64,000 nt of DNA from Dehalococcoidia bacterium (lineage in GTDB: Bacteria; Chloroflexota; Dehalococcoidia; GIF9; AB-539-J10), in assembly GCA_030611085.1 (NCBI GenBank), contig JAUWQI010000001.1, positions 32,390-96,389 of the forward strand, read 5' to 3'. This document shows positions 3,227 to 62,350 of this stretch, in pieces. The notes under the pieces are model-generated. The model did not search any database. It saw nothing but the letters and a program-made list of their open reading frames with translations, and was not told where the DNA came from. Each line of letters starts with the position of its first letter. The first letter of the stretch is position 1. The position numbers and the translations under genes are program-made.

Positions 3227-3409
3227 AGAGTATGGGTAACTCAAAAAATTCCTGGTGGAGAGGTAAACATTTTTGCGATTATTTCGTTTTTAATATTGGA
3301 TGGTGTTTAACTGTCACCCTGAACGGAGTGAAGAGTCTCTAGATTCTTCGGTCGCTTCGCTCCCTCAGAACGACAAAGAAAATTATGCCCTATATTAGTA
3401 GAACGAATT

Positions 3410-3691
3410 ATGAAGATTCTGCGGATGTTGAAAACCTTGATAACTGCCAAAGGCATGCTGGTGCTTCTCTTGGGTAGAGAGGTTACTATGCCCGATGGCG
3501 CTAGCTTAGGGGTAGTCATTGGTATCAAAAAAGAACTATCGCAGGATAAAATATGGATGATGGTTGATAAGCAAGGTCAGGAGATGATGATTCCAATTGA
3601 GCAAATTGCCAGTGTGACCAATAAAGTGGTTCTCTTCGGCGATTCTTCATTGGCTAACTCAGCGATGAACGGAGGCCAATGTGTTTTCTAA
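3410..3691 (+). CDS. small PRC-barrel-like protein (start uncertain)
   Basis: 93-aa ORF with G-x-V-x-D / mixed beta pattern; weak. Confidence 0.35.
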   Translation: MKILRMLKTLITAKGMLVLLLGREVTMPDGASLGVVIGIKKELSQDKIWMMVDKQGQEMMIPIEQIASVTNKVVLFGDSSLANSAMNGGQCVF

Positions 3692-3724
3692 CCGAGGAAA
3701 GATTGTGTTAATAGAGGAGTCAAG

Positions 3725-6142
3725 ATGAAAATTGAGAGAGCTTTGATTTCTGTACTTTTAGTGGCTACCGTTCTGATTACCGGCTGTGGAACTGCTCAGC
3801 CACCCATATCCTCCGAGTTTACTATACCTTCGGTAGCTGGGAATGAGGTATCAAACCCCAAACTTGTTATGGGGAGCTGCTATAAGCCTGGAGATGTTTC
3901 TATGTCTCCTAACGCTCCTTCCTATCTATTGCCTCTGGATTTAGGTGAAATAACAAACTTGGGGAAGGTAGAATCGGAGTTTGGACTGAATGAAAGCCAA
4001 AAGCAGCTTCTGGAGAAAAATGGTTTTGTCGTTATTCCCTGGCATGGTGATGACATTGTCCAGCCTTATAAGACGCTTAAGGAGCAAGAAATTCCCATCT
4101 TTGTTACCTCGGATACTTTACTTCACTTATATCATATCCAGTTCAATGAAATCTTAAAACGCCTTGAGGAGGAAGAGTTTTTTGATGAGCTAATCGATAC
4201 GAGCTTGGCGATGATGGAAAGGGCAGAGCAGGATTACGAATCCTTCGCCGATGCTGACCTGAAGGAGGCTGCGAGAAGAAATGTGGCTTATTTCACCGTG
4301 GCTCTGAAGCTCCTGCAGACGCCGACCGGGGGATATGATGAAGCAAAGGTTAAACAGGAAATCGAGAAATGGAATAAAGAGCATCCCTGGGACAAGAAGG
4401 AGTTCAAGCCATTAAAGAAAGTTGATTTTGCTATCCCTAAGTATGTGGCGGATGAAGTTGACAAAGAAATTGAAAACATCGAAGCACACAAAGGCTTCAA
4501 GCCCAGTGCCATATTTAATTCGGAGAAAGATTGTGCCTGTGGATATCCCTGCTGCTATTGCGAGGACTACTCCCAGTATGTTCCCAGGGGGCATTACACC
4601 AGGAGCGAGGTGCTTAAAAGGTATTTCAAAGCGGCGATGTGGTATGGCAGGATGGCTTTCCTGCTCAAGGGTGGGGAGGGAGATGAATGTATGCAGCCAG
4701 AAGGGCCTTTGGTTAGTGAGAAAGATGCCAAAATAGCTACCATTCAAGCCGCGCTTATTTCAGCAGAACTGTCCCTTGTGTCATTGCGAGCGGAGCGAAG
4801 CAATCCCACCACGGTTTGGGAAATATGGAACAGAATTTACTCCGTCACTTCATTCTTTGTGGGCACCGCCGATGACCTGACACCCTACGAATACCTGGAT
4901 GCTATAGAGAAGGTTTTTGGCACCAGCTTTGATGTCAGTCAGCTTGCTAACGAGGAAGAACTGCTCAAGCTTAAAGCTGAGCTAGCTCAAATGAGGAATC
5001 CTGAAATCTATGGCGGCTCTGGCATTTGCGTTATCGCTCCCCCGGTAACTAAAGAAAAGCTCTACGAGTGCCTGGCTAAGACAAAGGGGATGAGATTCAT
5101 GGGGCAGAGGTTTATCCCCGACTCATATATGTTTCAGAATCTGATCTTTCCCACTGTGGGTAATTATGTGGGCAAGGATGAGCCATTTACCATGAAGATG
5201 ACTATACTCGGTCCTCAGAGATGCTTCCCCCGAGGATTAGATGTCATGGGAGTTTTGGGCTCTGAGCGGGCTTATGAGATATTGAAGGCCGAAGGCGATA
5301 CCGAATACCAGGGGAAAGACACCAGTTATGATAAGCAGCTAGGCGAGCTTAGAAAGGAATTTGGTGCTTTTACTGAGGAAGACTGGAATCATAATCTTTA
5401 TTGGAGTTGGCTTTATGCCTTGAAGCCGCTGCTTGAGAATTTCAACCAAGGTTATCCCGCCTTTATGCAAACCGAGGCATGGCAGGATAAGGAACTGCAA
5501 ACTGCCTTAGCATCCTGGACTGAGCTTCGGCATGACACCATTCTATATGCCAAGCAAAGCTATACTCCAGCGGCAACAGCGATGCCACCTCAGCCAAAAC
5601 CTGTGGTGGGCTATGTCGAACCCATTCCTGAGTTTTATTCCCGCATGCTGGCACTCACCACAATGACAAAAAATGGGCTAGCCCAGCTCGATGCCTTAAG
5701 CGACAAGGAGAAGTCGAGACTGGAGAGATTGGAAGGCATTCTGGAGAGGTTAATCCAAATCTCCAAAGATGAGTTAGAAGGCAAAGAACTAAGCAAAGAG
5801 GATTATGGATTCATCAGGAATTTTGGTGGGCAGCTCAATTCTATAGTCGCTGGTGTTGAGGCTAAAGGCAAGGAAACCACCCTTGTTGCTGATGTTCATA
5901 CTGATACTAACTCACCAATGGAAGTCTTGGAAGAAGGGGTGGGTTATGTTGACCTTGCCTTAGTGGCTTATAAAGTTCCCGATGGCAGGATTATCCTTGG
6001 CGCTGGCCCCACGCTTAGCTACTATGAGTTCAAACAGCTTATGGAGCAAGGAAGATTGACTGATGAGCAGTGGAAGGAGATGCTAGAGCAAGGGCAACAG
6101 CCTCCAAGGCCAGATTGGATAGATAGCTTCTATGCTGGCTAG
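3725..6142 (+). CDS. lipoprotein, DUF3160-like large extracytoplasmic protein
   Basis: lipobox LITGCG; Cys cluster CACGYPCCYCEDY; 805 aa; contains in-frame family-1 repeat at 4780-4806. Confidence 0.55.
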   Translation: MKIERALISVLLVATVLITGCGTAQPPISSEFTIPSVAGNEVSNPKLVMGSCYKPGDVSMSPNAPSYLLPLDLGEITNLGKVESEFGLNESQKQLLEKNGFVVIPWHGDDIVQPYKTLKEQEIPIFVTSDTLLHLYHIQFNEILKRLEEEEFFDELIDTSLAMMERAEQDYESFADADLKEAARRNVAYFTVALKLLQTPTGGYDEAKVKQEIEKWNKEHPWDKKEFKPLKKVDFAIPKYVADEVDKEIENIEAHKGFKPSAIFNSEKDCACGYPCCYCEDYSQYVPRGHYTRSEVLKRYFKAAMWYGRMAFLLKGGEGDECMQPEGPLVSEKDAKIATIQAALISAELSLVSLRAERSNPTTVWEIWNRIYSVTSFFVGTADDLTPYEYLDAIEKVFGTSFDVSQLANEEELLKLKAELAQMRNPEIYGGSGICVIAPPVTKEKLYECLAKTKGMRFMGQRFIPDSYMFQNLIFPTVGNYVGKDEPFTMKMTILGPQRCFPRGLDVMGVLGSERAYEILKAEGDTEYQGKDTSYDKQLGELRKEFGAFTEEDWNHNLYWSWLYALKPLLENFNQGYPAFMQTEAWQDKELQTALASWTELRHDTILYAKQSYTPAATAMPPQPKPVVGYVEPIPEFYSRMLALTTMTKNGLAQLDALSDKEKSRLERLEGILERLIQISKDELEGKELSKEDYGFIRNFGGQLNSIVAGVEAKGKETTLVADVHTDTNSPMEVLEEGVGYVDLALVAYKVPDGRIILGAGPTLSYYEFKQLMEQGRLTDEQWKEMLEQGQQPPRPDWIDSFYAG

Positions 6143-9613: not shown

Positions 9614-9823
9614 ATTTCTGTTCTCTCCTCCTGCTTTTAAAGTTATTTAACAATCCACTTGTCATTCTGAGGGAGTGAAGCAACCGAAGAATCTCCGCTC
9701 AGGGTAAACTCCGCGAAGAATCTGGAGCCCCTGCGCTAGTACTCAGGGTGACAATTAAACACTCTGCTTGTTTGATTATACAAGATTATTGTATTATAGA
9801 GCAAAGCTTGCTTGAGGTGATTA

Positions 9824-13538: not shown

Positions 13539-13738
13539 TTTTCACCTCCATCCTCTCACTTGTCATTGCGAGCAAAGCGAAGCAATCTCAAGATCCTTCA
13601 CTATCACTCAGGGCGAATACCCGCCAGAGATTGAATCTTATCAGTTCAAATTGCTGGGTGTCAAACTGCTTGGGTCTCTCTGTTGATGTTCTACAATCTT
13701 GTCACCCCTTAACAGCAACATTGACTCAGCACATCGAG

Positions 13739-16434: not shown

Positions 16435-16710
16435 TTCCCTACATCTTTCTCATTATAGAGGCTGTTTAATTTTGTTTTTCCGTTTGATTTTGGGTATTTT
16501 GGGGAGTCTTCACCCCCAAATTTTTGTAGTTGCCTGATTTATCAGGCTTAGCCCAATAAATTGGGCAACTACATTTTTTAAACAGCCTCATTATAAGGTA
16601 ACCCTAATTTGAATTATGAAAATATTTTGTATAAGCTTAGAAGGTAAAGTTAGCATAAAATTACTCCCAGATGCAAATTTGAGGGATGGAGATTGTTTAG
16701 CAACCCATTT

Positions 16711-16850
16711 GTCATTCTGAGCCCTACGGGCGAAGAATCTCTCTTAGACTCTTCGCGGAGCCTGTCCTGGTGAGCCGAAGCTCTGAATGCAATGAAGAGG
16801 AGATTCTTCAGTCGCTTCTCTCCCTCAGAATGACAAGAAGCGAAGGGCGC
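16711..16850. repeat. family-1 palindromic element, full-length copy (TIRs GTCATTCTGAG...CTCAGAATGAC, inner GAAGAATCTC...GAGATTCTTC)
   Basis: ~140-bp MITE-like foldback in the thiC / gamma-CA spacer. Other intergenic copies: 3312-3376, 9660-9753, 13561-13615, 25272-25445, 26703-26877, 33247-33362, 36040-36122, 50200-50252, 62248-62304. Confidence 0.85.
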
Positions 16851-16917
16851 AGAGTAACATTTATCACTTATTAATAAACACTCTCGGGATGCAATCTAGT
16901 TATCAACTGGAGGTAGA

Positions 16918-23290: not shown

Positions 23291-23326
23291 TATGGATTTA
23301 ATTTTCAAGGCATGCCGCCTTAGTGT

Positions 23327-23503
23327 TTACTTGGGTTTCTTTAAGGTTCCCAGGCTGATGTTTACCTTCCCCAACAACTTGAGGGAGCGTCCAAAGAGCT
23401 TGCCGCCAACATCTTCCATATCAATGTTGAGGTCGGTTTCCTTATCGGTAATCTTGTCTACCAGGTCAAGGACTGGTCCCTGTTCTTTGTCTACTTCTGC
23501 CAT
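23327..23503 (-). CDS. small motif-family protein P1 (58 aa, below ORF-track cutoff)
   Basis: my own translation: MAEVDKEQGPVLDLVDKITDKETDLNIDMEDVGGKLFGRSLKLLGKVNISLGTLKKPK; RBS AGGAGGG 7 nt upstream. Confidence 0.55.
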   Translation of the reverse strand: MAEVDKEQGPVLDLVDKITDKETDLNIDMEDVGGKLFGRSLKLLGKVNISLGTLKKPK

Positions 23504-23604
23504 TGTTCTTACCCTCCTTATAAATTTTCTATAATTTGCAAGCTATGCCCCCGGGACGCGGCTTACTATAGGGGTTAATCTTCAATGTAACTTTCTCTCA
23601 GTAT

Positions 23605-24590: not shown

Positions 24591-24678
24591 GTTTAGTCTT
24601 CCTCCCCAATGGACTTTAAATTATATGGCGCATCCAACATCATATACGCGTTTTACTTGTGGGGTTTTCACCCCCACC

Positions 24679-25134
24679 TTACCTCTCTCCCTTCAAAGGA
24701 GAGGAATTCAAGCCTCGCAATGACATCGATTTAATCCTTTTATCATTTCTATGTGGCAGCTCAGTCTCCCCATAGCGGCATAGCGAGGCCCTAATCTGAG
24801 CTGCTAGCTCGTCATAATTTGTGGGTAACTGCATGTAATAATCCCAGTCCGTAGGGACTTCCGAGTTTGGGGAATAAACTTCCCCCTCCGATTTAGTACC
24901 CAAAAGGATGAGAGGAAGATTAAATAAACGGTGTATTTGCCAACAGAGAGTGAAGCCATCTAGCCCGGGAGGGCTATCCCTGACAACAACTGCGTCAGGG
25001 GTAGCCTTATCCACTATTTTAAACCCCGCTAATTCGGATGAGGCTACCATCACCTCAAAGCCAGACCCGGTAAGAGCTGAAGCTATCTTCTTTGCCGAGG
25101 CAAGGTCGCTGTCGATAACAAGAACACTATTCAT
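24679..25134 (-). CDS. stand-alone response-regulator receiver domain protein
   Basis: VLVIDSD...VVVRDSPPGLDGF...LLGTK CheY-like receiver. C-terminal tail partly encoded by a family-1 repeat fragment. Confidence 0.65.
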   Translation of the reverse strand: MNSVLVIDSDLASAKKIASALTGSGFEVMVASSELAGFKIVDKATPDAVVVRDSPPGLDGFTLCWQIHRLFNLPLILLGTKSEGEVYSPNSEVPTDWDYYMQLPTNYDELAAQIRASLCRYGETELPHRNDKRIKSMSLRGLNSSPLKGER

Positions 25135-25271: not shown

Positions 25272-25445
25272 CATGTCACCCTGAGCCCTTCGCTTCATGT
25301 CATTCTGAAGAAGCGGAGCGACTGAAGAATCTCCTCTTCAGTTCCTTCCTATCGTCAGGACTTAGAGCTTCGGCTTACCAAGACAGGCTTCGCGAAGGAT
25401 CTAAAAAGGACAAAGAGATTCTTCGCTCCACTCAGAATGACAGAG
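25272..25445. repeat. family-1 palindromic element (composite copy)
   Basis: GTCACCCTGAG / GTCATTCTGAAG ... CTCAGAATGACAG inverted termini in the RR / integrase divergent spacer. Confidence 0.8.
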
Positions 25446-25683: not shown

Positions 25684-26670
25684 ATGCAACAGGAGCTAAA
25701 TAGATTTCTTCACTATCTTGAGGTTGAGAAGGGATATTCCCAAGGCACTATCGAGGCATATCGGCTTGATATAGGAAAAGGGCTATTCCCATTCCTGCAT
25801 GAGATTGAGATTGCCACGCCTTCGGCTCGCAATGACAGGGTAGAAGAGGTCACGAAGGATGACATCCGAGCATATTTGGACTATCTAGCTGTTGAAAGGG
25901 CTAACTCCGGTGTTACCAGAGCACGCAAGCTAGCAGCAATAAAGTCATTCTTCAATTACTTGGTGGAAAATGAAGGGCTTGAAGCAAACCCGGCAGCTTC
26001 GGTAAAGAGTCCCAAGATACCTGAAAAGGAGCCGGTGTATCTGAGTGAGGAAGAGTGCCTTCGTTTTTTACAGATAATAGCCCAAAAAGCCAGACCACAG
26101 GTTAGAGAGCGGGATATGGCAATAGCTATGCTCTTGCTTCATACTGGGCTAAGGGTATCGGAGCTAACAAATCTGAAATTTTCTAATGTTGATCTTGAGA
26201 GAAGTCAGATAAAAATAACCAGGAAAGGGAGTAAAGAACAATATCTTCACCTGAATGGTGAAGCAGTAAGCGTATTGGTAAATTACCTTCATAGCTATCC
26301 ATATGACAGGAGATTGCCACGCTTCGCTCGCAATGACAGGGGGGAGATGGCTCGCAATGACGGAGGACTTTTGCCACAGGCTCAAAACGGCAGGTTTTTT
26401 GTAGGAACCAAAGGTCAAAATCTGAACCGCACTTATGTTTATAGTGTGGTGCGAAGATACTTAGAACTGGCGGGTATCAATAAAGATAAGCAGGGACCTC
26501 ACCTCTTGAGACATACCTTCTGCACCAGGCTACATCAGAAGGGAGTCTCACCCTTCGTGATAAAGGAACTCGCTGGTCACAAAAGCCTTAATACAACCAT
26601 GAGATATATCAAAATAGAAAATAAGGAGCAGTCTGAAGCCCTTGATAGACTGGAGTTTGGTATTCTTTAA
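25684..26670 (+). CDS. tyrosine site-specific recombinase (XerC/XerD/phage-integrase family)
   Basis: N-terminal SAM-like domain; catalytic R...HxxR...Y (LLRHTFCT...TTMRY) motifs; carries two in-frame family-1 repeat insertions. Confidence 0.85.
   Translation: MQQELNRFLHYLEVEKGYSQGTIEAYRLDIGKGLFPFLHEIEIATPSARNDRVEEVTKDDIRAYLDYLAVERANSGVTRARKLAAIKSFFNYLVENEGLEANPAASVKSPKIPEKEPVYLSEEECLRFLQIIAQKARPQVRERDMAIAMLLLHTGLRVSELTNLKFSNVDLERSQIKITRKGSKEQYLHLNGEAVSVLVNYLHSYPYDRRLPRFARNDRGEMARNDGGLLPQAQNGRFFVGTKGQNLNRTYVYSVVRRYLELAGINKDKQGPHLLRHTFCTRLHQKGVSPFVIKELAGHKSLNTTMRYIKIENKEQSEALDRLEFGIL
26306..26365. repeat. family-1 element fragments in frame in integrase (second of two; the other at 25812-25838)
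   Basis: tandem CTCGCAATGACAGG / CTCGCAATGACGG inside ORF encoding ARNDRGEMARNDGG. Confidence 0.8.
26585..26653 (+). repeat. direct repeat DR-L (3' end of integrase gene)
   Basis: 69 bp, 68/69 identical to 27639-27707. Confidence 0.9.
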
Positions 26671-26984
26671 GAAATCTTAGCTAGTTAGACAATTTCGGTA
26701 AGGTCGCTTCGCTTAGGGCTTTTCACCCTCGCAATGACAAAGGGGGAAGGCTCACAATGACACTTTTGAGGGCTGAGGGAGTCCTCTCCCTCAGCATGAA
26801 GGAACAGATTCCTTCATGCCTCAGATTGCCATGCCTTCGGCACGCAACTGCACTCAGGGCTTCGGCTCAGGGTGACATAGAGAACATTTTTTCTATTTTA
26901 CCACTAAATATGCTCAAAAAGAATATTCGAATGAGTTAAACTAGAGGACATTTCTAAAGGGTCTTGGCACCTCTACTAATAGAC

Positions 26985-27013
26985 TTGACAATTATGGTGG
27001 ACAGCTGTATCAT
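26985..27013 (+). promoter_or_regulatory. sigma70-like promoter for mazEF (TTGACA-17 nt-TATCAT)
   Basis: perfect -35 and good -10 about 30 nt upstream of the mazE RBS (TGGAGGT). Confidence 0.5.
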
Positions 27014-27043
27014 CATTGTAGATACATATATGGAGGTACTCCA

Positions 27044-27651: not shown

Positions 27652-27707
27652 GATATATCAAAATAGAAAATAGGGAGCAGTCTGAAGCCCTTGATAGACT
27701 GGGTTTG
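27639..27707 (+). repeat. direct repeat DR-R (copy of integrase 3' end downstream of mazF)
   Basis: 69 bp; mazF reading frame runs into it. Confidence 0.9.
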
Positions 27708-27747: not shown

Positions 27748-29475
27748 TTACATTCTCTCGGGGGCTGTCATGCCCATGAGGTGAAGAACCCTGGCTAAAA
27801 CAATCTGAGTTGCTCTGACCAACTTAAGCCGAGCTTTAGTCAGCTCTTCATCCTGGGAAATGACTCTGCATTGCTTATAAAAGCTGTGGAAAACGGTAGC
27901 TAAATCTTGAGCATAGTAGGGTAGATGATGAGGCTCAAGGGTAGTTGCTACCTCTTCTATTATTTCGGGGAGAAGTATTAAGCGGCGAATTAAAGTTAAC
28001 TCTGGCTCAGTTGAGAGCAGAGAAACATCGCCTTGGGCATAATCTATCCTCTGCTGCTTGGCTAACCTGAGAATACTGGCAATCCGAGCATAAGCATATT
28101 GAACATAATACACGGGATTATCCACTGATTGCTTCTTAGCTAGCTCTATATCGAAGTCCATCTGGCTGTCAGCAGAGCGAGAAAGGAAGAATAAGCGGCA
28201 AACATCTGGTCCTACTTCATCAATCAACTCCCGCAGGGTAACGATGTCACCGCTACGTTTAGATACTTTGACCATTTCCTTCCCACGCCGCAGAGTAACT
28301 AACTGACAGATTATTACCTTGAGATGTTCAGGGGCTACTCCTAGAGCTTTGAGCATCGCTTTCATCCGGGGAACATGTCCCTGGTGGTCAGCCCCCCAAA
28401 TATCAATTACAGTGCTGAATCTTCGCTCCAGAAATTTGTTGTAGTGATAGGCAATGTCAGAGGCAAAATAAGTAGGAGAGCCATCACTACGCAGCAGAAC
28501 ATTATCTTTATCCTCGCCTAAGGCAGTCGATTCAAACCAGGTGGCGTTTTCCTTCTTAGCTACATAGCCTCCGTCTTGTAGCAATGCCATGGCTTTATGG
28601 TACTGAGATCCTTCCCCTTCACTTTGTTCAGGGTCAGGACGATAAAGGCTTTTTTCACTAAACCAAACATCAAAGTCAACATTTAATAGCTTAAGGTCTT
28701 CCTTAATTCCCTGTATTATCCGGGCAAGTCCAATTTTAGCTAATTCTGAAATTGCTTCGCCTTCGGCTCGCAATGGCGATTCACCCTCACCCAACCCTCT
28801 CCCTTCAAGGGAGAGGGAAAATTTATCACCTTGCTCCTGAACAATTTCCTTCGCCAGGTCAATCATGTAATCACCAAGATAGCTGTTCGGGAGCATGGCA
28901 ACCTCTTTGCCTAAGCACTGTTGATAGCGTGCATAGAGGGAGCGGCCGAAGCTGTCTATCTGGTTGCCCATATCATTTACATAATATTCCTTTTCTACTG
29001 AGTAACCAGCAGCGCTGAGTACGTTTGCTAAGGTGCTACCTAAGACAGCACCACGTCCATGGCCTACATGGAGAGGACCGGTGGGGTTGACACTAACAAA
29101 CTCAAGTTGAACACGACTGCCTTTGCCTGATAGGCTAGCGCCATATGATTCACCAGTTTCCAGAATCGATGTCACTTGCCCACATAGCCAGTCATCCCGC
29201 AAGTTGAAGTTGATAAAACCTGGCGAAGCAATCATAACCTTATCGAATTCGGAAGGAGGCGATACATGCTCGTATATTCTTTCAGCTATAGCCATAGGTG
29301 ACATCCTCATACCACGAGCTAGTTTCAGGGGGAGGCCTGAGGCAAAATCTCCGTGCTCTGGGTTCTGGGGATGTTCCACGGTTATTTCAGGCAAAGTTGT
29401 GGTAACAAGCTCACCCTGTTGTTGCGCTTCAAGCACTGCTTCTCGGAGACAAGCAGCTAATTTTTCCTTAAGCAT
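27748..29475 (-). CDS. argS: arginine--tRNA ligase
   Basis: full-length ArgS with HVGH-like PLHVGHGRGAVLG motif and DALR anticodon-binding end. In-frame family-1 repeat at 28755-28820. Confidence 0.95.
   Translation of the reverse strand: MLKEKLAACLREAVLEAQQQGELVTTTLPEITVEHPQNPEHGDFASGLPLKLARGMRMSPMAIAERIYEHVSPPSEFDKVMIASPGFINFNLRDDWLCGQVTSILETGESYGASLSGKGSRVQLEFVSVNPTGPLHVGHGRGAVLGSTLANVLSAAGYSVEKEYYVNDMGNQIDSFGRSLYARYQQCLGKEVAMLPNSYLGDYMIDLAKEIVQEQGDKFSLSLEGRGLGEGESPLRAEGEAISELAKIGLARIIQGIKEDLKLLNVDFDVWFSEKSLYRPDPEQSEGEGSQYHKAMALLQDGGYVAKKENATWFESTALGEDKDNVLLRSDGSPTYFASDIAYHYNKFLERRFSTVIDIWGADHQGHVPRMKAMLKALGVAPEHLKVIICQLVTLRRGKEMVKVSKRSGDIVTLRELIDEVGPDVCRLFFLSRSADSQMDFDIELAKKQSVDNPVYYVQYAYARIASILRLAKQQRIDYAQGDVSLLSTEPELTLIRRLILLPEIIEEVATTLEPHHLPYYAQDLATVFHSFYKQCRVISQDEELTKARLKLVRATQIVLARVLHLMGMTAPERM
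28755..28820. repeat. family-1 element fragment inserted in frame in argS
   Basis: GCTCGCAATGGCGATTCACCCTCACC plus CTCTCCCTTCAAGGGAGAGG hairpin inside a continuous ORF. Confidence 0.8.
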
Positions 29476-33212: not shown

Positions 33213-33372
33213 TAAACAGTTCTCCCTTTTTCATCCTGTTTACCCTTTGTCATTCTGAGTCATTCGCTCCGCCTGTCATTCTGAGAGAGCAGAGCGACCG
33301 AAGAATCTCCTCTTCAATTCCTTCAGAGCTTCGGCTCACCAGGATGAACTTGACGAAGAATTTTTAAGTCCA

Positions 33373-36003: not shown

Positions 36004-36093
36004 ATTTTCACTTCATGGAGTATGATTCTTTATTTCACTTCCCCTTCACTTTGTTCAGGGCTTTGGTTCACTCATTCGGAATGACAGGATTTG

Positions 36094-37473
36094 TCATTCC
36101 GAGCGTAGCAAAGAATCTCCCTTGCTTTTTTGCAGTGCTGCTTCTACTTGCTGCGGGGAAGTGCCACCGATGACATCCCGAGCAGCTATGGATGATTCGA
36201 AGGATATACCATATACATCTTCACTGAAGAGAGGTGAGAAATTTTTGTACTCCCTCAGGCTAAGCTCGTGGAAGCTTTTGCCCTCCTTAATAGCATATTC
36301 ACTAAGTTTAGCTACAATGCCATGCGCCTCCCTGAATGGCAAGCCTTTCTTCACTAAATAGTCGGCTATATCGGTAGCCAAAATGTAATCCTTTTTAATA
36401 ACATCACGAATACGCTTAGCATTGACCTTGATTGTTTTTATCATCTCAGCAAATATTTCTAAACTGGAATGTAATGTATCCACGGTGTCGAAAAGCCCTT
36501 CTTTATCCTCCTGCATATCCCGATTATAAGTTAAGGGCAGGCTTTTCATGGTGGTTAGGATAGCCATGAGATTACCGTATACTCGTCCGGTTTTGCCTCG
36601 AGCTAGCTCTGCTACATCGGGATTTTTCTTCTGCGGCATGATGCTGCTGCCCGTAGTGTAGGCTTCACCAAGCTCTATAAAGCCAAACTCGATAGATGAC
36701 CACAGGATAATCTCTTCAGCTAATCGTGAAAGGTGCATCATAGTTAAGGCAGCGGCAGCTTCATATTCTATTATGAAATCCCTATCGGAAACAGCATCAA
36801 GACTATTTGCGCTTACTTTAGTGAAACCCAATTCTTGGGCAACGAATTCACGGTCTACAGGATAAGGAACGCCAGCTAAAGCACCGCTGCCTAGAGGCAA
36901 AACATCAGTGCAGTTGAGACAATTATAGAACCTCTTTTTATCTCGCTGGAGCATCTCAAAATAGGCGAGTAAGTGATGTGCCACAAGAACTGGCTGAGCC
37001 TGCTGCAAATGAGTATAGCCGGGCATGATGACTTCTTTATTGGTTTCAGCTAAGTTTACAAGCGAGCATTGCAAAGCTTCTAACGCATCGATGGTTTTCA
37101 AGATTTCCTCTTTAACAAAGAGGCGCAAATCCAAGGCTATTTGGTCATTCCTGGAACGAGCAGTATGCAGCTTGCCAGCCACATTGCCTATCTTTTCAAA
37201 CAACCTAGCTTCGATATTCATGTGTATATCTTCAAGCTCAGACTTAAACTGAAATTTCCCCTGCTCAATTTCCTCACAAATAGAATTAAGCCCAGCAATT
37301 ATAGCTTCAGCCTCGCTGTTCGTTATTATTCCTTGTTTTGCCAGCATTTTGGCATGAGCGATGCTTCCCTCGACGTCCTGGCGATATAATCGCTGATCAA
37401 AGGGGATAGAAGCAACATAATCTTGTGCCATTCTATTAGCCTCTTTCTGAAAGCGATTACGCAAGTAACTCAT
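36094..37473 (-). CDS. argH: argininosuccinate lyase
   Basis: fumarate-lyase GSSIMPQKKNPD signature. Confidence 0.9.
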   Translation of the reverse strand: MSYLRNRFQKEANRMAQDYVASIPFDQRLYRQDVEGSIAHAKMLAKQGIITNSEAEAIIAGLNSICEEIEQGKFQFKSELEDIHMNIEARLFEKIGNVAGKLHTARSRNDQIALDLRLFVKEEILKTIDALEALQCSLVNLAETNKEVIMPGYTHLQQAQPVLVAHHLLAYFEMLQRDKKRFYNCLNCTDVLPLGSGALAGVPYPVDREFVAQELGFTKVSANSLDAVSDRDFIIEYEAAAALTMMHLSRLAEEIILWSSIEFGFIELGEAYTTGSSIMPQKKNPDVAELARGKTGRVYGNLMAILTTMKSLPLTYNRDMQEDKEGLFDTVDTLHSSLEIFAEMIKTIKVNAKRIRDVIKKDYILATDIADYLVKKGLPFREAHGIVAKLSEYAIKEGKSFHELSLREYKNFSPLFSEDVYGISFESSIAARDVIGGTSPQQVEAALQKSKGDSLLRSE

Positions 37474-39613: not shown

Positions 39614-39719
39614 CATAATACCTCCCACAACTTATATGCGGTAGAATACTACCAGAGATTGTTTATTTTGTCATCCGCATCCTTCGATAAGCTCAGGATA
39701 AGCTCTTATTCCTCTTCCA

Positions 39720-40613: not shown

Positions 40614-40626
40614 TTTCACCTTCACC

Positions 40627-42202
40627 TTAATTCTCTCCCGTCAAGGGAGAAGAGAGGAAAGTTATATGCCTTTGCCAGGCAGACGAGGTCTGAGGGAAAT
40701 CACTACGGAAGTGAGCACCGCGGCTCTCCTCTCGAAGCAAAGCAGCCTCGGTTACCAGCCTGGCACATAACACCAAATTATTTAGTTCGTAGGATTGGCG
40801 GTCAATAGGTTGAGACAAAGAGCGTTGCCAGGTAGCCAAAATGCCTGCAGCATTAGCTAGGCTTTCACCAGAACGAATAATGCCCACTTTGTCCCACATA
40901 AGAGACTGCAGACTAGGCAAATTAAGCGGTGGCACATTCTTTAGTCCTGAGTCTCTAGTCTTGAGTCTTGAGTCTTGAGTCTTGACTTCTTGACTCTTGA
41001 CTCTCGACTCCTGACTCCTTATGACAAGGAGCGGTAGTCCTTTCCGCCACTCGCTTACCAAAAACAACTGATTCAAGCAGTGAATTTGATGCCAGCCTGT
41101 TAGCTCCGTGCACGCCGGTGCAGGCAGTCTCGCCAGCAGCAAATAGACCGGAGATGTTTGTTTCACCCCAAGTATTCACTTTTACTCCTCCCATAAGATA
41201 ATGAGCTGCCGGGGCTACCGGGATGAGCCCTCTGGTAATATCCAAACCATGAGCCAAACAAAAGCGGTAAATATGGGGGAAACGAGTGGTGATTAGCCGA
41301 GGTGGTAAATGGGTGACATCCAGAAATACTCTATCACTTCCTGTCTTTCTCATTTCGTAGACAGTGCTGCGGGCTACTATATCCCTTGCCGCTAGCTCGG
41401 CTTCAGCAACGTAGTTTGGCATAAAGCGGTAGCCTTCCACATTTCTAAGTATGCCACCCTCTCCCCTTACCGCCTCGGAGATGAGGAAGGGAGCCACTCC
41501 GGGCAGGCGAAGAACAGTGGGGTGGAATTGGAAAAATTCCATATCGCTGATTCCAGCCCCAGCCTTAAAAGCTAGAGCTACGCCATCGCCAGTAACCACA
41601 TCAGAATTGGTACTATATTTAAACAGGCGCCCAACCCCCCCAGTAGCTAAAATGAGAAATTGGCAGCTATATTCCTCCACTAAGCCAGTTCGGCAATCAA
41701 GTGACTTCACGCCTTTTACCTTGTTGCCCTCTACCAAAATCTCGCTAGCCAAACAATCCTCTAAAATCTTGATTGAGCTTGACCTCACTTGCTGGCTTAG
41801 GGAAAGCTCAATATGCTCGCCTGTGGCATCTCCACCAGCATGGATGATGCGCGGGGTACTATGAGCTGCTTCTCTAGTCAAAGTAATTTCACCATTTAAG
41901 GTATCGAAAGGGACTCCAAATCTGATTAAGTCAGCAATGCACTCAGCGCCCTCTTCAGTCAAAATACGCACCGCTTCAGCATCGCATAAGCCATCACCGG
42001 CAGCCATAGTATCTTTGAAGTGAAGCTCAGGAGAGTCATCCTTGCTCATAGCAACAGCAATACCACCTTGAGCATACTTAGTATTGCAGTCATCAATGTT
42101 GCCTTTAGTCAAGATAAGAACGCTGCCTTGCTTTATAGCAAGCAAGGCGATGTAAAGGCCAGCAATGCCGCTGCCCACTATAATGTAGTCGTAGTGATTC
42201 AT
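40627..42202 (-). pseudogene. nadB: L-aspartate oxidase NadB interrupted by a +1 frameshift within a heptanucleotide tandem repeat (or sequencing error)
   Basis: N-terminal 415-aa ORF (FAD GSGIAGL, RHAGG) and C-terminal 125-aa NadB segment lie in different frames overlapping across 40944-41021. Confidence 0.7.
40944..41021. repeat. heptanucleotide tandem repeat (GTCTTGA and variants, ~10 units, one 8-nt unit) inside nadB
   Basis: directly visible; coincides with the nadB frame switch. Confidence 0.9.
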
Positions 42203-44961: not shown

Positions 44962-46311
44962 TCAAAGTATAATTTTGCCTTGCAGCGCCCAAGGGCTGCT
45001 TTTGTCAACTTTAACTTTCAACAATTGACCAAGATAGCCAGCATCGTCTTCAAAGAAGACCAGCTTATTACTCCTAGTGCGTCCATACCACTTATCTTTC
45101 TTCTCACCTTCCACCAGTACCTGCACTATCTTTCCCTGAAGCTGTGAGTTTATTTCAGAAGCTATGCTTGCTTGGAGGTCTTCAATTTTATTGAGCCTTT
45201 TCCTCTTAATCTCTGGAGGAACATTATCTTTGTATTTCTGCGAGGCGATAGTGCCAGGACGAGGCGAGTAAGCTGCCACATGAACAACATCAAACCTTAA
45301 TTCTTGGAGTAACGAAAAGGTATGTTCAAATTGCTCCTCCGTTTCTCCAGGGAAGCCAACGATAACATCGGTGCTTAAAGATACTTCAGGGATATGGCAC
45401 CGAACAGTATGGATAAGTTCACGATATTGTTCCACGGTGTATCCCCGTCTCATGGCTCTCAGTATATCATCATCGCCTGCCTGAATGGCTAACTCCAGGT
45501 GTTCACAAACCTTATTCAGGGAAGCTACAGCCCCAATGAGCTTCGGGCTCATGTCTTTAGGATGGTTTGTCAGGAAGCGAATTCTGACCAAGTTATCGAT
45601 GCCATTTAGTCTAGCTAGTAAGTCAGCCAAGTTGGGTTTCCCAGGCAAATCATGTCCGTAAGAGTCAACATTTTGTCCCAGCAAAGTTATCTCTTTTACA
45701 CCACGCTTCACCATTTCTTCAACCTCGCAGACTATTTCCTCTACAGGGTGACTTACCTCCTTACCCCGCCGATAAGGAACAATACAGTAAGAGCAGAAAT
45801 TATCACAGCCTTGAATAATGGGAACAAAGGCACATGGTAAGGAAGTCCCCAAAGTGTCATTGTGAGCCCTGCGCTCCTTGTTATTCTGAGGGAGCGAAGC
45901 GACTGAAGAAGCTCGCTCAGGGCAGGCTCCGCAAAGCAATCCTTGCTCAGCAACAAAAATACCTTGCCCTTTAGCCCAATCAATTAACTCGGAATAAGCC
46001 CCGGGCTTAAAGAAAAAATCAACCTGGGGAAATTGACTCTTTAACCCCTCAATATCGGAATCGACAAAGCAGCCAGTAACCAATATAGAGAGATTTGGGC
46101 GTTTCCTTTTCAAGCCCTGTAGTCCATTTAGGGTGCCTAGAACTTTATCTTCGGCGCTTTGCCTCACTACGCAGGTGTTGAGCACTATTAGATTGGCTTC
46201 TTGAAAAGAAGCTGTAGCCTGATAGCCAGCAGAATCCAGATAACCAGCTATATGCTGTGATTCCGCCTTATTCATCTGGCAGCCTATAGTCCAAATAGAA
46301 TAACGTGACAT
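44962..46311 (-). CDS. miaB: tRNA methylthiotransferase MiaB-family radical SAM enzyme
   Basis: MTTase N domain; radical SAM Cys cluster CSYC (CDNFCSYC, the CxxxCxxC motif) and TRAM domain; in-frame family-1 insertion at 45855-45950. Confidence 0.85.
   Translation of the reverse strand: MSRYSIWTIGCQMNKAESQHIAGYLDSAGYQATASFQEANLIVLNTCVVRQSAEDKVLGTLNGLQGLKRKRPNLSILVTGCFVDSDIEGLKSQFPQVDFFFKPGAYSELIDWAKGQGIFVAEQGLLCGACPERASSVASLPQNNKERRAHNDTLGTSLPCAFVPIIQGCDNFCSYCIVPYRRGKEVSHPVEEIVCEVEEMVKRGVKEITLLGQNVDSYGHDLPGKPNLADLLARLNGIDNLVRIRFLTNHPKDMSPKLIGAVASLNKVCEHLELAIQAGDDDILRAMRRGYTVEQYRELIHTVRCHIPEVSLSTDVIVGFPGETEEQFEHTFSLLQELRFDVVHVAAYSPRPGTIASQKYKDNVPPEIKRKRLNKIEDLQASIASEINSQLQGKIVQVLVEGEKKDKWYGRTRSNKLVFFEDDAGYLGQLLKVKVDKSSPWALQGKIIL
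45855..45950. repeat. family-1 element in frame in miaB
   Basis: GTCATTGTGAGCC...GTTATTCTGAGGGAGCGAAGCGACTGAAGAAGCTCGCTCAGGG inside ORF. Confidence 0.85.
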
Positions 46312-50187: not shown

Positions 50188-50257
50188 ACTTTTTCCCTGT
50201 TGTCATTGTGCGACCTTCGCTTATTGTCATTCTGAGCGAAGCGAAGAATCTGAAGAT

Positions 50258-51391
50258 ATGACTAAAAAGCGAGTAGCTGTAGCACTAAGTGGCGGTGTGG
50301 ATTCCTCCGTGGCAGCTTTACTGCTTAAAGAGGCTGGATATGAAGTTATGGGTCTGCATGCCCGTTTGTGGGAATCTCCAAGTTCAGAGCAACAGAGACA
50401 GCAAGCTGAAAGTATCTGCCGTATTTTAAACATCCCCTTTCACATGATAGAGTTACAAAAGGAATTTAACCTCCAAGTAGTTGATTACTTTTGCCAGGAG
50501 TACCAACAGGGGCGGACTCCTAATCCTTGCGTTGCCTGTAATCAGCATGTAAAGTTTGGCCTACTCCTCGATAAAGCCCTTTCCCTGGGTGCTGACTGTT
50601 TAGCCACGGGGCATTATGCCCAAATTGAGCATTCTGTCAATGGCTATCACTTGCTTAAAGGGGCAGATGCGAGCAAGGACCAATCTTACTTTCTTTATAC
50701 CTTAAATCAGGAGAAACTCAGATATGTTCTTTTCCCTTTAGGTGGATATACCAAAGTTGAGGTTAAGCAGATAGCAGTAGGGTCGGGGCTTGTCCCCGAC
50801 CGCGGGTTGCCTGTGACAGCTAAGCCTAGCCAGGATATCTGCTTCATCTCTCAGAAGAATTACCATGCTTTTATCAGCCAACGTTTTACCAACATGCCAG
50901 GAGATATCATAGATACTCAAGGGAAAATACTAGGTCGCCATCAAGGAATAGCCTATTACACTATTGGGCAAAGACATGGTTTAGGATTGTCGTCAGGTAA
51001 GCCTCTTTATGTCATAAAGATAGAGCCAGGGCTTAACAGAATTGTGCTTGGCGAAGAAAAGGAACTTTACAGTCAGAAAATTACCGCTCGAAAGTTGAGA
51101 TGGGTACCAGGTGAACTACCTTCTGAGCCTATCGCTATTACAGCTAGGATACGCTATAAATCGAGAGAGGCGGAAGCTATACTATACCCACCCTGTTATT
51201 GCGAGCAAGGCGAAGCAATCTCTGATATTTGCTTTTCTCAGCCGCAGCGAGCAAGCACTCCAGGACAAGCCATCGTGTTTTATAAAGGTGATGAAGTGCT
51301 GGGTGGCGGCACCATAGAAAATAAAAGATTAAAATGCAAAAGGCAAAAATGCAGGGCAAAGGTAAAAACATTTTTAAGTTTTGACTTTTAA
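50258..51391 (+). CDS. mnmA: tRNA-specific 2-thiouridylase MnmA
   Basis: PP-loop ALSGGVDSS plus catalytic Cys; carries in-frame family-4 (50768-50812) and family-1 (51193-51222) repeat insertions. Confidence 0.9.
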   Translation: MTKKRVAVALSGGVDSSVAALLLKEAGYEVMGLHARLWESPSSEQQRQQAESICRILNIPFHMIELQKEFNLQVVDYFCQEYQQGRTPNPCVACNQHVKFGLLLDKALSLGADCLATGHYAQIEHSVNGYHLLKGADASKDQSYFLYTLNQEKLRYVLFPLGGYTKVEVKQIAVGSGLVPDRGLPVTAKPSQDICFISQKNYHAFISQRFTNMPGDIIDTQGKILGRHQGIAYYTIGQRHGLGLSSGKPLYVIKIEPGLNRIVLGEEKELYSQKITARKLRWVPGELPSEPIAITARIRYKSREAEAILYPPCYCEQGEAISDICFSQPQRASTPGQAIVFYKGDEVLGGGTIENKRLKCKRQKCRAKVKTFLSFDF

Positions 51392-60400: not shown

Positions 60401-60403
60401 ATT

Positions 60404-61315: not shown

Positions 61316-61353
61316 CGGGTCTCTCCTTTTTCCTGTTTTTTCTGCCTTTAGGC

Positions 61354-62172
61354 TCAGTTTTCCCCACAAACGAGACAATTCATCACTTGCCCATTGTCTT
61401 CTGTGTGATCTTTGCTCCGGCAATAATTGGGTGTTGCGCTCTTGATTGCGACATAAGTTGTGGCCATTCCGAGAGTGAGGGGATAAGCTATAACATTCCC
61501 CAACCCTACCCTTTCCATAACCTGTTTCAATGCGGAGGGACTGTAAAATTCTACGATTGACTTTGGAAGATAAGCATAGGCTTCCTTATTCCTTGATATA
61601 ACCTGCCCGAGAAAGGGTAGAATATGGAAAATGTAGAAATAATAAATCCGCCTGAATATCTTGTGCTGAGGTCGGCTGAACTCAAGGCAAAGCATCTTCC
61701 CTCCTATCTTTAGCACCCTGGTCATTTCTCGAAGTGTTTGTTCCACCTCGGACACATTCCTCAAGGCAAAGCCAATGCTAACGCAGTCAAAGGTATCGTC
61801 GGGAAAAGGAAGAGCTTCCGCTTTAGCGCAAATAAGCTCCATATTGTGGCACCGCCTTTTCGCTAGCTTGCCTTGAGCTCTGCGCAGCATCTCTTTAGAA
61901 AAATCAACCCCGATAACTTTACCCTCTCTACCAATTTTGCTAGCTAATTCCAAGACCAGAGCACCGGTTCCGGTAGCTACATCGAGAACCTGCCCTCCAG
62001 CCCCAGGTTCAACTTTGGAAACGGCAAATCTCCTCCAATATTTATCCCTATTAAAGCTGAGCAAACTATTAAGGAAATCATAATTATTGGCTATGGAAGA
62101 GAATATCTTGTGAATATATGTTTCCTTGCTTGCTACCCAACTCCTGTTGTTTACTGCTTTATGAGTGAACAT
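61354..62172 (-). CDS. ubiE: demethylmenaquinone / ubiquinone C-methyltransferase UbiE/MenG
   Basis: VLDVATGTG SAM motif and UbiE-family N-terminus. Confidence 0.85.
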   Translation of the reverse strand: MFTHKAVNNRSWVASKETYIHKIFSSIANNYDFLNSLLSFNRDKYWRRFAVSKVEPGAGGQVLDVATGTGALVLELASKIGREGKVIGVDFSKEMLRRAQGKLAKRRCHNMELICAKAEALPFPDDTFDCVSIGFALRNVSEVEQTLREMTRVLKIGGKMLCLEFSRPQHKIFRRIYYFYIFHILPFLGQVISRNKEAYAYLPKSIVEFYSPSALKQVMERVGLGNVIAYPLTLGMATTYVAIKSATPNYCRSKDHTEDNGQVMNCLVCGEN

Positions 62173-62350
62173 GGCAAGTAAGCAAAATTATACCCATAAT
62201 GTATGGCTGTCAAGTTTCCTTGAGGAAAAGGTTGTTTAGCAACTCGACTGTCATTCTGAGCAAAGCGAAGAATCTCCAGACCCTTCGCTATCGCTCAGGG
62301 TGACAAAGTAAGCGACCTTATTGAAAAGCTAGAGAGCTTTAGCTTATAAT

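Follow-up and report, generated by a model that had tools for sequence, protein, structure and literature searches.

How does the same short hairpin come to fill the spacers of a bacterial genome and also to lie in frame inside its genes? The question is raised by a window of 64,000 nt (the whole stretch analyzed, about 52 genes) from the MAG of an uncultured Dehalococcoidia bacterium, in which hairpin repeats of 25-40 bases fill the intergenic spacers and occur in frame in genes. We consider it likely that they make up one family of small hairpin elements of the REP type, with the anatomy, spread and genic survival proposed below. The genic repeat phenomenon is real and of unusual density, yet of a type already known.

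A family of tagged hairpins

The motif GTCATTCTGAG with at most one mismatch occurs 17 times in the window against 1.25 expected, a count reached by 0 of 100 shuffles, and 15 units match perfectly to a structural descriptor (GTCA + 4 nt + GA ... reverse complement + T + C), compared to 0.2 in Markov shuffles. The unit consensus is YGTC-A-YYSY-GA-[variable inner hairpin]-GA(A)/GTG-RSRR-T-CTC. The 5' tag YGTC is unpaired (TGTC in about 84%, CGTC in about 10%) and is followed by a 5-bp outer stem opening with A-T and T-A, a conserved purine-rich internal loop where GA faces GA, GAA or GTG, an inner hairpin that varies freely, from a GCGAAGC mini-hairpin up to 7-bp stems, and a 3' tail, CTC. The outer stem covaries, with the head/tail combinations TTCT/AGAAT (44 of 46 cases), TTGC/GCAAT (83 of 88) and CCCT/AGGGT (6 of 7). 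Across the aligned units, paired cells amount to 93.3% versus 80.8% in shuffles (observed value reached by 0 of 500), and the inner hairpin shows both-sided (compensatory) changes at 5 of 7 pairs, with slid controls at 24-57%.

Units are arranged as singletons, double heads 24 nt apart, inverted dimers and mosaics. The original prediction of at least ten occupied spacers agrees with the 10 in which self-BLAST and repeat search of the window recovered the family (strand given where assigned):

3303..3379: inverted dimer, intergenic (repeat search)
9654..9762: composite with outward TGTCAYYCTGAG heads, intergenic (repeat search, descriptor)
13548..13619, plus strand: unit and tail module, intergenic (repeat search, 13548-13616; descriptor)
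16690..16862: mosaic of 173 nt, intergenic (repeat search)
25273..25443: mosaic of 171 nt, intergenic, upstream of xer (repeat search)
26690..26880: cluster of degenerate units, intergenic, downstream of xer
33247..33360, plus strand: double-headed unit and modules, intergenic (repeat search, 33248-33344; descriptor)
36038-36118: family copy in intergenic spacer (self-BLAST, repeat search)
50201..50256, plus strand: double-headed unit immediately upstream of the mnmA start codon (descriptor)
62229..62306: inverted dimer, intergenic (the best foldback, see below)

A weak head is seen at 38370 besides these spacers. The spacer copies had been described as foldbacks; with standard DNA parameters this holds for some composites, best for 62247-62307 (z -5.3), but most composites have z between 0 and -1.7, and most units have no predicted stability above shuffles. 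The unit is also found in phage contigs (GC 34-67%), where units are located between structural genes; in one of them, L085, several genes in a row are each followed by a unit, in a single orientation throughout. A second, GTAG-tagged family is present in the window at 1115-1244, 16521-16590, 37488-37514 and 62937-63111.

Copies inside genes

Element sequence is found in at least 8 of the about 52 window genes, as additional loops and linkers. It lies within intact ORFs of argS, recG, miaB, mnmA, xer and the DUF3160 gene, and constitutes the 3' ends of the response regulator and argH genes; Pfam supports the identities of the host genes. Every intragenic segment that had been predicted in a continuous ORF does carry the element:

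4779..4808, plus strand: single TGTC-ATTGC unit, sense, DUF3160 gene; perfect descriptor match; peptide VSLRAERSNP
24667..24727, minus strand: head TGTCATTGCGAGG and CCTCTCC..GGAGAGG hairpin, response regulator 3' end
25806..25841, minus strand: perfect unit, antisense in xer (tyrosine recombinase); peptide IEIATPSARNDR
26306..26365, minus strand: double-headed unit, antisense in xer; peptide RLPRFARNDRGEMARNDGG
28605..28641, minus strand: argS insert 2, nested unit CGTCCTGA[CCCTGAACAAAGTGAAGGG]GAAGGATCTC; peptide RPDPEQSEG; not in the original prediction
28745..28822, minus strand: argS insert 1, CCCTCTCCCTTGAAGGGAGAGGG hairpin and CGCC/CGTC-ATTGC unit; peptide SLSLEGRGLGEGESPLRAEGEAI
30863..30895, minus strand: partial unit (head TGTCATTGCGAGG and own hairpin), RecG helicase-domain loop; peptide CHCEERDSSLA
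31969..32075, minus strand: composite (double head, unit and tail module), sense, RecG N-terminal region; peptide IYHSEPFASCHSERSEESRDPS
36092..36121, plus strand: unit over the last codons and stop of argH (TGA of TGACA); descriptor; an addition to those predicted
45852..45950, plus strand: composite of about 96 nt, antisense in miaB, UPF0004/radical-SAM interdomain linker
50779..50801, plus strand: other hairpin family (GGGTCGGGGCTTGTCCCCGACC) within mnmA; 100% identical to 20-42; a second mnmA insert, likewise additional
51190..51222, plus strand: unit, sense, mnmA C-terminal barrel; descriptor with 1 mismatch; peptide PCYCEQGEAIS

The sites were compared with ortholog sets of 80 ArgS, 73 RecG, 119 MiaB, 119 Xer, 80 MnmA and 77 DUF3160 sequences. 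ArgS measures 552 aa in most relatives and 575 in the window. Among the 80 orthologs, insert 1 is common only to L001, L002, L003 and L016, relatives that retain the CGTC tag; it is a gap in the alignment to PDB 3fnr and folds with z -3.55 under standard DNA parameters. Insert 2 is missing in 78 of 80, with the outer unit alone in L002 and outer plus inner unit in the window, and a 23-mer of it is 100% identical to intergenic 36038-36060. For RecG, with two predicted copies, inflation to 863 aa had been claimed, and the ortholog median is indeed 820 aa. This stands for the N-terminal composite, which most of the 73 orthologs lack, but not for 30863-30895, which equals the native loop of close orthologs in length and is therefore a replacement and not a net insertion. 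The helicase-domain loop with the partial unit is lineage-specific and missing in T. maritima RecG (1gm5).

Xer has a modal length of 296 aa among orthologs and 328 in the window; only 4 of 120 Xer sequences have the unit at 25806-25841, and the site at 26306-26365 carries an insert of 17-46 aa in 12 of 120. The MiaB linker site holds inserts of 3-57 aa in about 30 of 119 homologs and none in the closest relatives, P0002 and P0008. In MnmA, each insert gives +5 aa compared to homologs (80 for the unit at 51190-51222, where P0285, 78% identical, carries a nested insert of larger size). The DUF3160 site reads as native ELPNV-KxxDx-TCW in about 55 of 77 relatives and holds the unit in about 20, net +5 aa; precise loss is seen here, as L176 differs from L173 by the absence of exactly 27 nt of the unit, with AAT microhomology at the junction. 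The element in the response regulator tail had been correctly predicted, except that the gene lies on the minus strand (24679-25134); the element supplies its last 13 codons (MSLRGLNSSPLKGER) and the stop. The argH gene occupies 36094-37473 (minus strand).

Presence of the genic segments is thus patchy, most close orthologs lacking them for six of the seven predicted host genes (all but the response regulator), which is the opposite of conserved native sequence for argS, recG (N-terminal), miaB, mnmA, xer (both sites) and DUF3160. If the segments were native peptide modules, or modules selected for function, rather than insertions, it could explain why inserts are common to several species and in frame (ArgS in 5 genomes, DUF3160 in about 20 metagenome contigs). 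However, the genic copies are identical or near-identical to intergenic copies in the window, and frame comparison of the host genes bears out that identical element DNA is read in differing frames and orientations from gene to gene. In addition, decayed copies of the unit drift freely, and the segments occupy low-confidence, unstructured model parts. Native modules are therefore very improbable and already largely refuted.

Permissive surface sites had been anticipated, and the predicted structures agree, as inserts are located in low-confidence loops or linkers of the models. The MiaB insert is the sole segment with pLDDT <50 (residues 122-156; model mean 80.5). In Xer, whose model is poor (mean pLDDT 65), the unit at 25806-25841 corresponds to loop residues 48-53 and the insert at 26306-26365 to another loop, both with pLDDT <50.

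Chimeric joining or collapse of repeats during assembly deserves mention since the source is a MAG and short repeats can mislead assemblers. However, the same filled alleles recur at identical codon positions in independent assemblies and samples (ArgS, DUF3160), three contigs of 50-200 kb encode the exact MiaB protein, and the host ORFs remain intact, which makes an artefact scarcely credible.

Survival in genes and mode of spread

Element-containing indels between related loci outside genes have net lengths modulo 3 of 8/9/8, i.e., no multiple-of-three bias. Therefore, the in-frame copies are survivors of selection, as had been claimed. The 13% of the sequence that lies outside ORFs of at least 150 aa holds 90 of 118 units (76%), and these two observations together indicate purifying selection against genic copies. 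Four of the six reading frames through the unit are stop-free. Units also nest, as seen from a 50-nt unit within the loop of a hairpin, with TCGCTA at its flanks, and from graded insert sizes in MiaB and Xer.

We propose that units multiply in and among genomes of this lineage and are removed again through short-repeat-mediated deletion, most copies building up in spacers. A genic copy would persist only if it alters the length by a net multiple of three, if it is read in one of the open frames, and where the site tolerates added residues. Surviving copies are presumably translated into short Ser/Glu/Arg/Cys-rich loops, linkers or C-terminal tails. A resident copy may seed further nested copies, and the same protein sites would thus turn into hot spots. 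Spread is probably due to a trans-acting enzyme recognizing the single-stranded hairpin and tag, or to hairpin-stimulated template switching. No mobilizing enzyme was found, the unit-flanked ORFs being housekeeping genes, and a low-power search of 2.35 Mb gave no match to a RAYT-like gene.

The elements had been called MITE-like. A classical MITE is a deletion derivative of an IS, moved by a DDE transposase via its TIRs and flanked by a TSD of fixed length. The composites do have terminal inverted repeats TGTCAYYCTGAG ... CTCAGRRTGACA, and some filled/empty pairs are flanked by direct repeats of 5-7 nt, one by about 17 nt. However, composites in the window have no consistent duplication at their flanks, junction repeats differ in length (3 to 17 nt), what moves is often one unit of 25-37 nt or a half unit of 24 nt, and no transposase gene bounded by these ends came up in 2.35 Mb. 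We regard this origin as improbable; the repeat hairpin element stands, but as a REP-like one, i.e., a small tagged hairpin with no consistent TSD and no IS parent.

At the junctions there are half-unit indels and short direct repeats of variable length (3, 5-7 and about 17 nt), which fit slippage no less than transposition. Nor are the events simple clean insertions, as is evident from the copy in the recG helicase loop and from the net gain of 5 aa in DUF3160 and MnmA. Host replication and repair (hairpin-stimulated template switching, short-repeat slipped mispairing, gene conversion among copies) could suffice without a dedicated transposase, with phages carrying units between hosts. This is in line with the microhomologies (AAT in the DUF3160 indel, TCGCTA, AGTGG), the 24-nt half-unit indels that give rise to double heads, the DUF3160 and MnmA changes smaller than a unit, the units between phage structural genes, and CGTC REPs reported without transposase (PMC3733652). 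Still, near-identical units at many unlinked sites, in genomes of 34-67% GC, are hard to obtain without a sequence-specific activity, and a conserved unpaired tag and internal loop beside freely covarying stems resemble a protein recognition site. We consider this a serious possibility, albeit not the probable one.

The units might instead act chiefly as RNA (terminators, stabilizers or processing sites), genic copies being regulatory or removed before translation. A function as RNA is assumed for REPs elsewhere (PMC3733652), proteins or RNases could plausibly act at hairpins with G.A-rich internal loops, and the series in L085 would suit such a role. Against this, orientation relative to transcription is unbiased at Dehalococcoidia loci (34 vs 28), convergent or unidirectional spacers are not preferred, and an Rfam match is absent. 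To our knowledge, there is also no splicing mechanism for 25-100-nt elements. Overall, an RNA-level role as the main explanation seems quite improbable.

Comparison with known repeat systems

REP/REPIN-RAYT systems with GTAG-tagged REPs (Nunvar 2010, PMC2817692; Bertels and Rainey 2011, PMC3116915) share the tagged hairpins, inverted doublets folding into longer hairpins and presumed single-strand recognition. The tag in the window units is YGTC, and no RAYT gene was found for them (2.35 Mb, low-power query). Intragenic enterobacterial ERIC/RU (Delihas 2007, PMC2759123) and Coxiella QMITEs (PMC5896051) are likewise small non-autonomous repeats that add peptides within ORFs, but they are longer (about 100-170 bp), of TIR type and rarely inside genes.

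The behavior had been likened to Rickettsia palindromic elements. According to the summary of RPE-1 to RPE-10 (Ogata et al., 2000, 2002) in PMC10969869, these are also selfish palindromic repeats, inserted in frame into unrelated housekeeping genes where protein fold and function allow it, while RPE-1 is about 100-150 bp long with a conserved encoded peptide. The window elements have no sequence similarity to RPEs, and their unit occurs in several reading frames and in either orientation. Unlike Rickettsia, which live as obligate intracellular bacteria and have decaying genomes, the Dehalococcoidia here are free-living anaerobes.

The likeness holds at the level of the CGTC-tagged REP superfamily (Di Nocera, De Gregorio and Rocco 2013), which includes RPE-4 and RPE-6 as well as Neisseria dRS3 (PMC3733652). 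Its members are short palindromic units with an unpaired CGTC tag, often TGTC, a stem opening with A-T and T-A and a 3-nt unpaired tail; they occur as singletons, inverted dimers and clusters without associated transposase, and tRNA synthetase and DNA-repair genes are among their hosts (PMC3733652). Intragenic copies are documented in several phyla, with in-frame insertions beyond Rickettsia in Opitutus, Thauera, Sphingomonas, Coxiella and others, and the published peptides (VIPAKAGI, SFPRKRES, CHSRESGNP, DSRFRGND; PMC3733652) are similar in style to VILS.., SLRAERSN, CHSERSEES and RFARNDR of the window. That no such family was known for such organisms thus holds for Dehalococcoidia, for which the literature searched had no description and which are not among the reported host phyla, but not for the kind of element (PMC3733652). 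Published stems are continuous, of 8-9 bp with loops of 4-5 nt and a CCA tail (PMC3733652), whereas the window units have a 5-bp outer stem, a GA/GA(A) internal loop, a variable inner hairpin, a CTC tail and unit-in-unit nesting, and genic copies are denser (8 of about 52 genes). The element design matches the published CGTC/TGTC-tagged superfamily, and the repeats are thus a new family of a known kind.

YGTC-tagged hairpins in the window and in related genomes

The repeat search and self-BLAST recover one interrelated family from ten intergenic spacers and several ORFs of the window, which confirms the ten-spacer family of the original prediction. When a single mismatch is allowed, GTCATTCTGAG is found 17 times in the window against 1.25 expected, a number reached in 0 of 100 shuffles, and a strict structural descriptor finds 15 perfect units in 64 kb versus 0.2 in shuffles. 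For comparison, an ArgRS scan of one-genome-per-species GTDB contigs gave 80 syntenic loci, 73 of them also with recG; these ArgRS relatives are all from uncultured Dehalococcoidia/Chloroflexota and share 65-85% amino-acid identity. Strict units number 118 in 1.18 Mb of relatives, are 25-40 nt long and are arranged as singletons, double heads 24 nt apart, inverted dimers or mosaics of up to ~170 nt. No Rfam family and no tRNA were found when the window was scanned for them, and a protein-database search with a composite element peptide returned seven small unannotated ORFs and nothing else.

The unit follows the formula [Y]GTC - A YYSY - GA - [inner hairpin] - GA, GAA or GTG - RSRR T - CTC. 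The base preceding GTC is T in 124 of 147 units (84%) and C in 14 (~10%), and the argS copy carries CGTC in four relatives. The stem opens with A-T and T-A and runs for 5 bp, followed by a GA/GA(A) internal loop and a variable inner hairpin, and it is continuous only if G.A pairs are counted. The 3-nt tail reads CTC in 65% of units and less often CCC or CCA. For the outer 5-bp stem there are three versions that covary: TTCT is matched by AGAAT (44/46), TTGC by GCAAT (83/88) and CCCT by AGGGT (6/7), and the inner hairpin ranges from GCGAAGC up to 7-bp stems of unrelated sequence.

As MAFFT aligns the TTCT and TTGC classes one column out of register, the analysis relied on a structural descriptor compared with shuffles and on pair counting, in place of a covariance model. 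In a length-matched alignment of 20 units, selected on the outer stem and not on the inner helix, 93.3% of cells are paired, compared with 80.8% in shuffles (0/500) and 24-57% in slid controls; in the inner hairpin, both sides have changed in five of seven pairs. Significant foldback stability is limited to some composites: with standard DNA parameters, 62247-62307 has a z of -5.3 and other composites mostly lie between 0 and -1.7, in an energy model that gives tandem G.A pairs no credit.

The window also holds other repeats. A second family with a GTAG head (GTAGTTGCCTGATTTATCAGGC / GTAGTTGCCCAATTTATTGGGC) forms inverted dimers at 1115-1244, 16521-16590, 37488-37514 and 62937-63111; its design is that of classical GTAG-REPs, the 3' end of a rhomboid gene (62351-62926) is overlapped by one copy, and no accompanying RAYT was found. 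A third hairpin family, GGGTCGGGGCTTGTCCCCGACC, lies at 9-43, 1260-1322 and 50779-50801, where it forms a 35-nt, 97% identical inverted pair around truB (421-1068) and places an identical 23-mer in frame in mnmA. Hairpins of the type CCTCTCCCTT(C/G)AAGGGAGAGG occur at 24685-24704, 28797-28816, 39712-39731 and 40633-40652; the argS copy and the copy in the response-regulator tail are joined to YGTC units, and the two further copies stand one at each end of the gene 39720-40625. A direct repeat of 195 nt with 84% identity and 278-nt spacing (23319-23513 and 23597-23791) partly overlaps the ORF 23605-24024. Directly 5' of three units, at 9640-9660, 16690-16710 and 62229-62249, is a conserved segment of ~20 nt with the palindrome GTTGTTTAGCAAC, in each case in a divergent intergenic spacer; this segment could be an operator or could belong to a longer variant of the element.

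Copies inside protein-coding genes

The original prediction placed palindromic elements inside several genes, and at all of its coordinates the sequence is present within an uninterrupted ORF. Element-bearing genes make up 8 of ~52 genes in the window (~15%), a genic density probably above that in Rickettsia.

Host genes in the window, as identified by Pfam
27748-29475, minus strand, ArgRS
29788-32379, minus strand, RecG, 863 aa
44962-46311, minus strand, MiaB
50258-51391, plus strand, MnmA
25684-26670, plus strand, XerC/D-type recombinase
3725-6142, plus strand, DUF3160 protein
24679-25134, minus strand, receiver-domain protein (response regulator)

If the segments were native sequence of argS, recG, miaB and mnmA, orthologs should share them, and most orthologs are without them. 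ArgRS is 552 aa long in most of the 80 orthologs versus 575 aa in the window; a 21-aa segment (28745-28822) is common only to the window and four relatives (L001, L002, L003 and L016), where the CGTC tag is kept, and a second segment of 9 aa (28605-28641) is found in the window only, plus a shorter form in L002. RecG, in which SCHSERSEESRDPS spans an insert junction, has 863 aa compared with an ortholog median of 820 aa. Its N-terminal composite (31969-32075) is missing from most of the 73 orthologs, and the RecG proteins of other relatives have their own element-like inserts at other sites, e.g., CHCERS and SLRGAERRSNL. The copy in the helicase loop (30863-30895) lies in a lineage-specific loop absent in T. 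maritima RecG (1gm5) and is a replacement, since its length equals that of the native loop of close orthologs. The recG copies had both been taken as insertions, which therefore holds for the N-terminal composite but not for 30863-30895.

The MiaB linker between the UPF0004 and radical-SAM domains has inserts in ~30 of 119 homologs and none in the closest relatives. These inserts measure 3, 11, 17, 20, 24, 27, 28, 33, 53 or 57 aa and contain element peptides such as ..PERDSSVALLPQNDK.., and comparison with the closest relative shows that the whole linker is hypervariable. The recombinase has 328 aa in the window versus a modal length of 296 aa; an insert is present at its site 1 in 4 of 120 sequences and at its site 2 in 12 of 120 (17-46 aa), the site 2 inserts including a composite peptide also found in MiaB. 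MnmA has gained 5 aa at each of two sites: at the YGTC-unit site, the insert of a relative with 78% identity is larger and nested, while the other site holds a different hairpin, 100% identical to 20-42 of the window. In DUF3160, the native ELPNV-KxxDx-TCW is seen in ~55 of 77 relatives and the unit in ~20, in some of them in decayed form. The response-regulator tail is a run-on into a unit head and a second hairpin; no orthologs of this protein were found in the relatives' loci examined.

Assembly chimeras would be another source of such copies. However, the filled alleles are seen again in independent assemblies and three long contigs carry the exact MiaB protein, so assembly error is excluded for practical purposes. 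Sample ERZ4219663 (L239 and L081) contains MiaB with the insert (NODE_22, 17x coverage) beside a 77-81%-identical empty allele (NODE_77), and two related populations thus coexist in this sample.

At the 3' end of xer, a 72-nt, 97% identical duplicate (26582-26653 and 27631-27702) brackets 26671-27651. Between the duplicates are an element cluster and two ORFs, one AbrB/MazE-like (~27045-27280) and one for a MazF/PemK toxin (27280-27651); the arrangement looks like a toxin-antitoxin cassette inserted into the xer end with target duplication.

Of the 118 strict units in the 1.18 Mb of Dehalococcoidia DNA, 90 are intergenic, 9 lie at the edge of an ORF and 19 fall within ORFs of 150 aa or more; ORFs of this size make up 87% of that DNA. 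According to the consensus, two of the six reading frames through the unit contain a stop codon, and the frames used by genic copies are all open ones. Indels with element sequence between related loci, leaving out the DUF3160 site, have a net length mod 3 of 0, 1 or 2 in 8, 9 and 8 cases; the multiple-of-three rule is therefore due to selection on genes and is not a property of the element, in agreement with the selection that had been proposed. The expected position at permissive protein sites was also borne out. In the MiaB model (mean pLDDT 80.5, pTM 0.80), residues 122-156 are the sole stretch under 50 and correspond to the insert in the linker between the domains, and in the poor Xer model (mean pLDDT 65), both inserts are in stretches below 50 between secondary-structure elements. 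Alignments of ArgRS with 3fnr and of RecG with 1gm5 have gaps opposite the inserts.

Units also shape gene ends. The stop codon of ArgH is the TGA of a unit's TGACA, and units near gene starts can provide a start codon, as A+TGTCATTGCGA reads ATG TCA TTG CGA (MSLR). Four ArgRS orthologs (L008, L011, L027 and L056) start with MSLR(T/S)(K/R)R(S/G)NP or similar, and a window unit (50226-50260 region) ends 8 nt ahead of the mnmA ATG. For annotation, this means that units make spurious small ORFs and that gene ends are lengthened or shortened via starts (A+TGTCA) and stops (TGACA).

Growth, mobility and viral contigs

Nesting of units is directly visible. At argS site 2, L002 has the outer unit alone, and in the window the loop of that unit contains a second hairpin; at the locus L162, a 50-nt unit flanked by TCGCTA sits in the loop of a simple hairpin and is not in L173. 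Indel comparison shows that double heads arise by gain or loss of a 24-nt head-plus-spacer module. In relative L176, 91-93% identical to L173, a stretch of exactly 27 nt bounded by two AAT triplets is missing from the DUF3160 unit, and because the unit's CTC tail is still there, we regard this as a precise in-frame loss. At one intergenic site, eight genomes differ in whether they carry whole mosaics of 150-290 nt, with overlaps of 5-6 nt.

Unit orientation relative to transcription is unbiased (34 versus 28) and there is no preference for spacer type, which favours a selfish element at the DNA level rather than an RNA function tied to one strand. The tag and the internal loop are conserved next to stems that covary freely, which points to a putative protein recognition site, and the variable microhomologies point to participation of host replication or repair; we consider the protein recognition site slightly more likely. 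Among unit-flanked ORFs in 2.35 Mb, a search of limited power, no transposase was found, and the ORFs include TrpRS, an aminotransferase, ThiC, GNAT and phage structural genes. Two candidates from the window were rejected: the 35-nt inverted pair 9-43/1260-1294 as a transposase carrier, as the enclosed gene is truB, and xer as the mobilising enzyme, as this XerC/D-type gene is conserved, with 65-82% identity among the retrieved homologs, and is a target of insertion rather than its source.

The family is not confined to Dehalococcoidia, since a 27-nt degenerate unit matches 76 IMG/VR contigs (L083-L158) of 34-67% GC; a rough estimate from the information content of the pattern puts chance matches well below one. 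The viral units sit between portal, major-head (capsid) and adaptor genes, and phages could be carriers of units. In the viral contig L085 (3365-8820), several structural genes in a row each have one unit behind them, always in the same orientation, and in L128 (441-943), three copies have an exact spacing of 238 nt. A broader reading, which we consider rather unlikely, is that the YGTC/GA-loop hairpin is a cross-phylum, phage-carried element with self-targeted nested growth and a general generator of protein loops and linkers, whose tag and loop could mark the site of a CGTC-REP mobilising enzyme.

Implications and relation to known palindromic elements

In-frame selfish hairpins, predicted to be translated, reach beyond Rickettsia and host-restricted bacteria: ArgRS, RecG, MiaB, MnmA and Xer have been shaped by hairpins in a streamlined, free-living and environmentally important lineage. 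Density, nested hot spots, filled and empty allele series and presence on phages make this a useful system. Dozens of related genomes have, at the same codon positions, alleles that are filled, empty, nested or decayed; they constitute a natural experiment on the entry of new loops and linkers into proteins, in which the activity that moves CGTC-type REPs could also be sought.

The composites have terminal inverted repeats like an IS-derived MITE, but flanking repeats are absent or 3-17 nt long, which differs from the fixed-length target-site duplication of MITEs, and a search of 2.35 Mb gave no IS with matching ends that could be the parent. REP/REPIN-RAYT systems have a GTAG tag and a RAYT gene flanked by REPs, whereas the units here have a YGTC tag, and tblastn with an approximate E. 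coli RAYT query over 2.35 Mb, a comparison of low power, gave no RAYT-like ORF (best E=4.5). The literature searched contained no reports of Dehalococcoidia REPs or MITEs, and the exact motif appeared only in unrelated primers and plasmids.

The GTAG- and CGTC-tagged REP superfamilies were defined by Di Nocera et al. 2013 (PMC3733652). Members of the CGTC class are palindromic units of 20-40 bp with an 8-9-bp stem that begins with A-T pairs, a 4-5-nt loop and a 3-nt tail with the consensus CCA; they are without a transposase, TGTC and CCTC are allowed as tag variants, and TGTC is frequent (PMC3733652). Rickettsia RPE-4/-6 and Neisseria dRS3 belong to this class, and in-frame genic copies, some of them in tRNA synthetases and repair genes, are reported from Rickettsia, Sphingomonas, Erythrobacter, Rhodopseudomonas and Coxiella (PMC3733652). 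Rickettsia palindromic elements (RPEs), still treated as the extreme case of in-frame insertion in a 2024 review (PMC10969869), are likewise in frame in unrelated housekeeping genes at structurally permissive sites; the likeness is in design and behaviour only, as the published RPE-4/-6 peptides differ from those here. The Rickettsia-like behaviour originally proposed stands as to in-frame insertion in housekeeping genes, and the original interpretation is supported with the corrections made here. With the CGTC superfamily, our family shares the repeated short palindrome, the unpaired YGTC tag, the lack of a recognised adjacent transposase and the style of its genic peptides, but its stem architecture and tail are different, as are its host phylum and its density (8 of ~52 genes). 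Collectively, our results describe a new family of a phenomenon that is itself already published.
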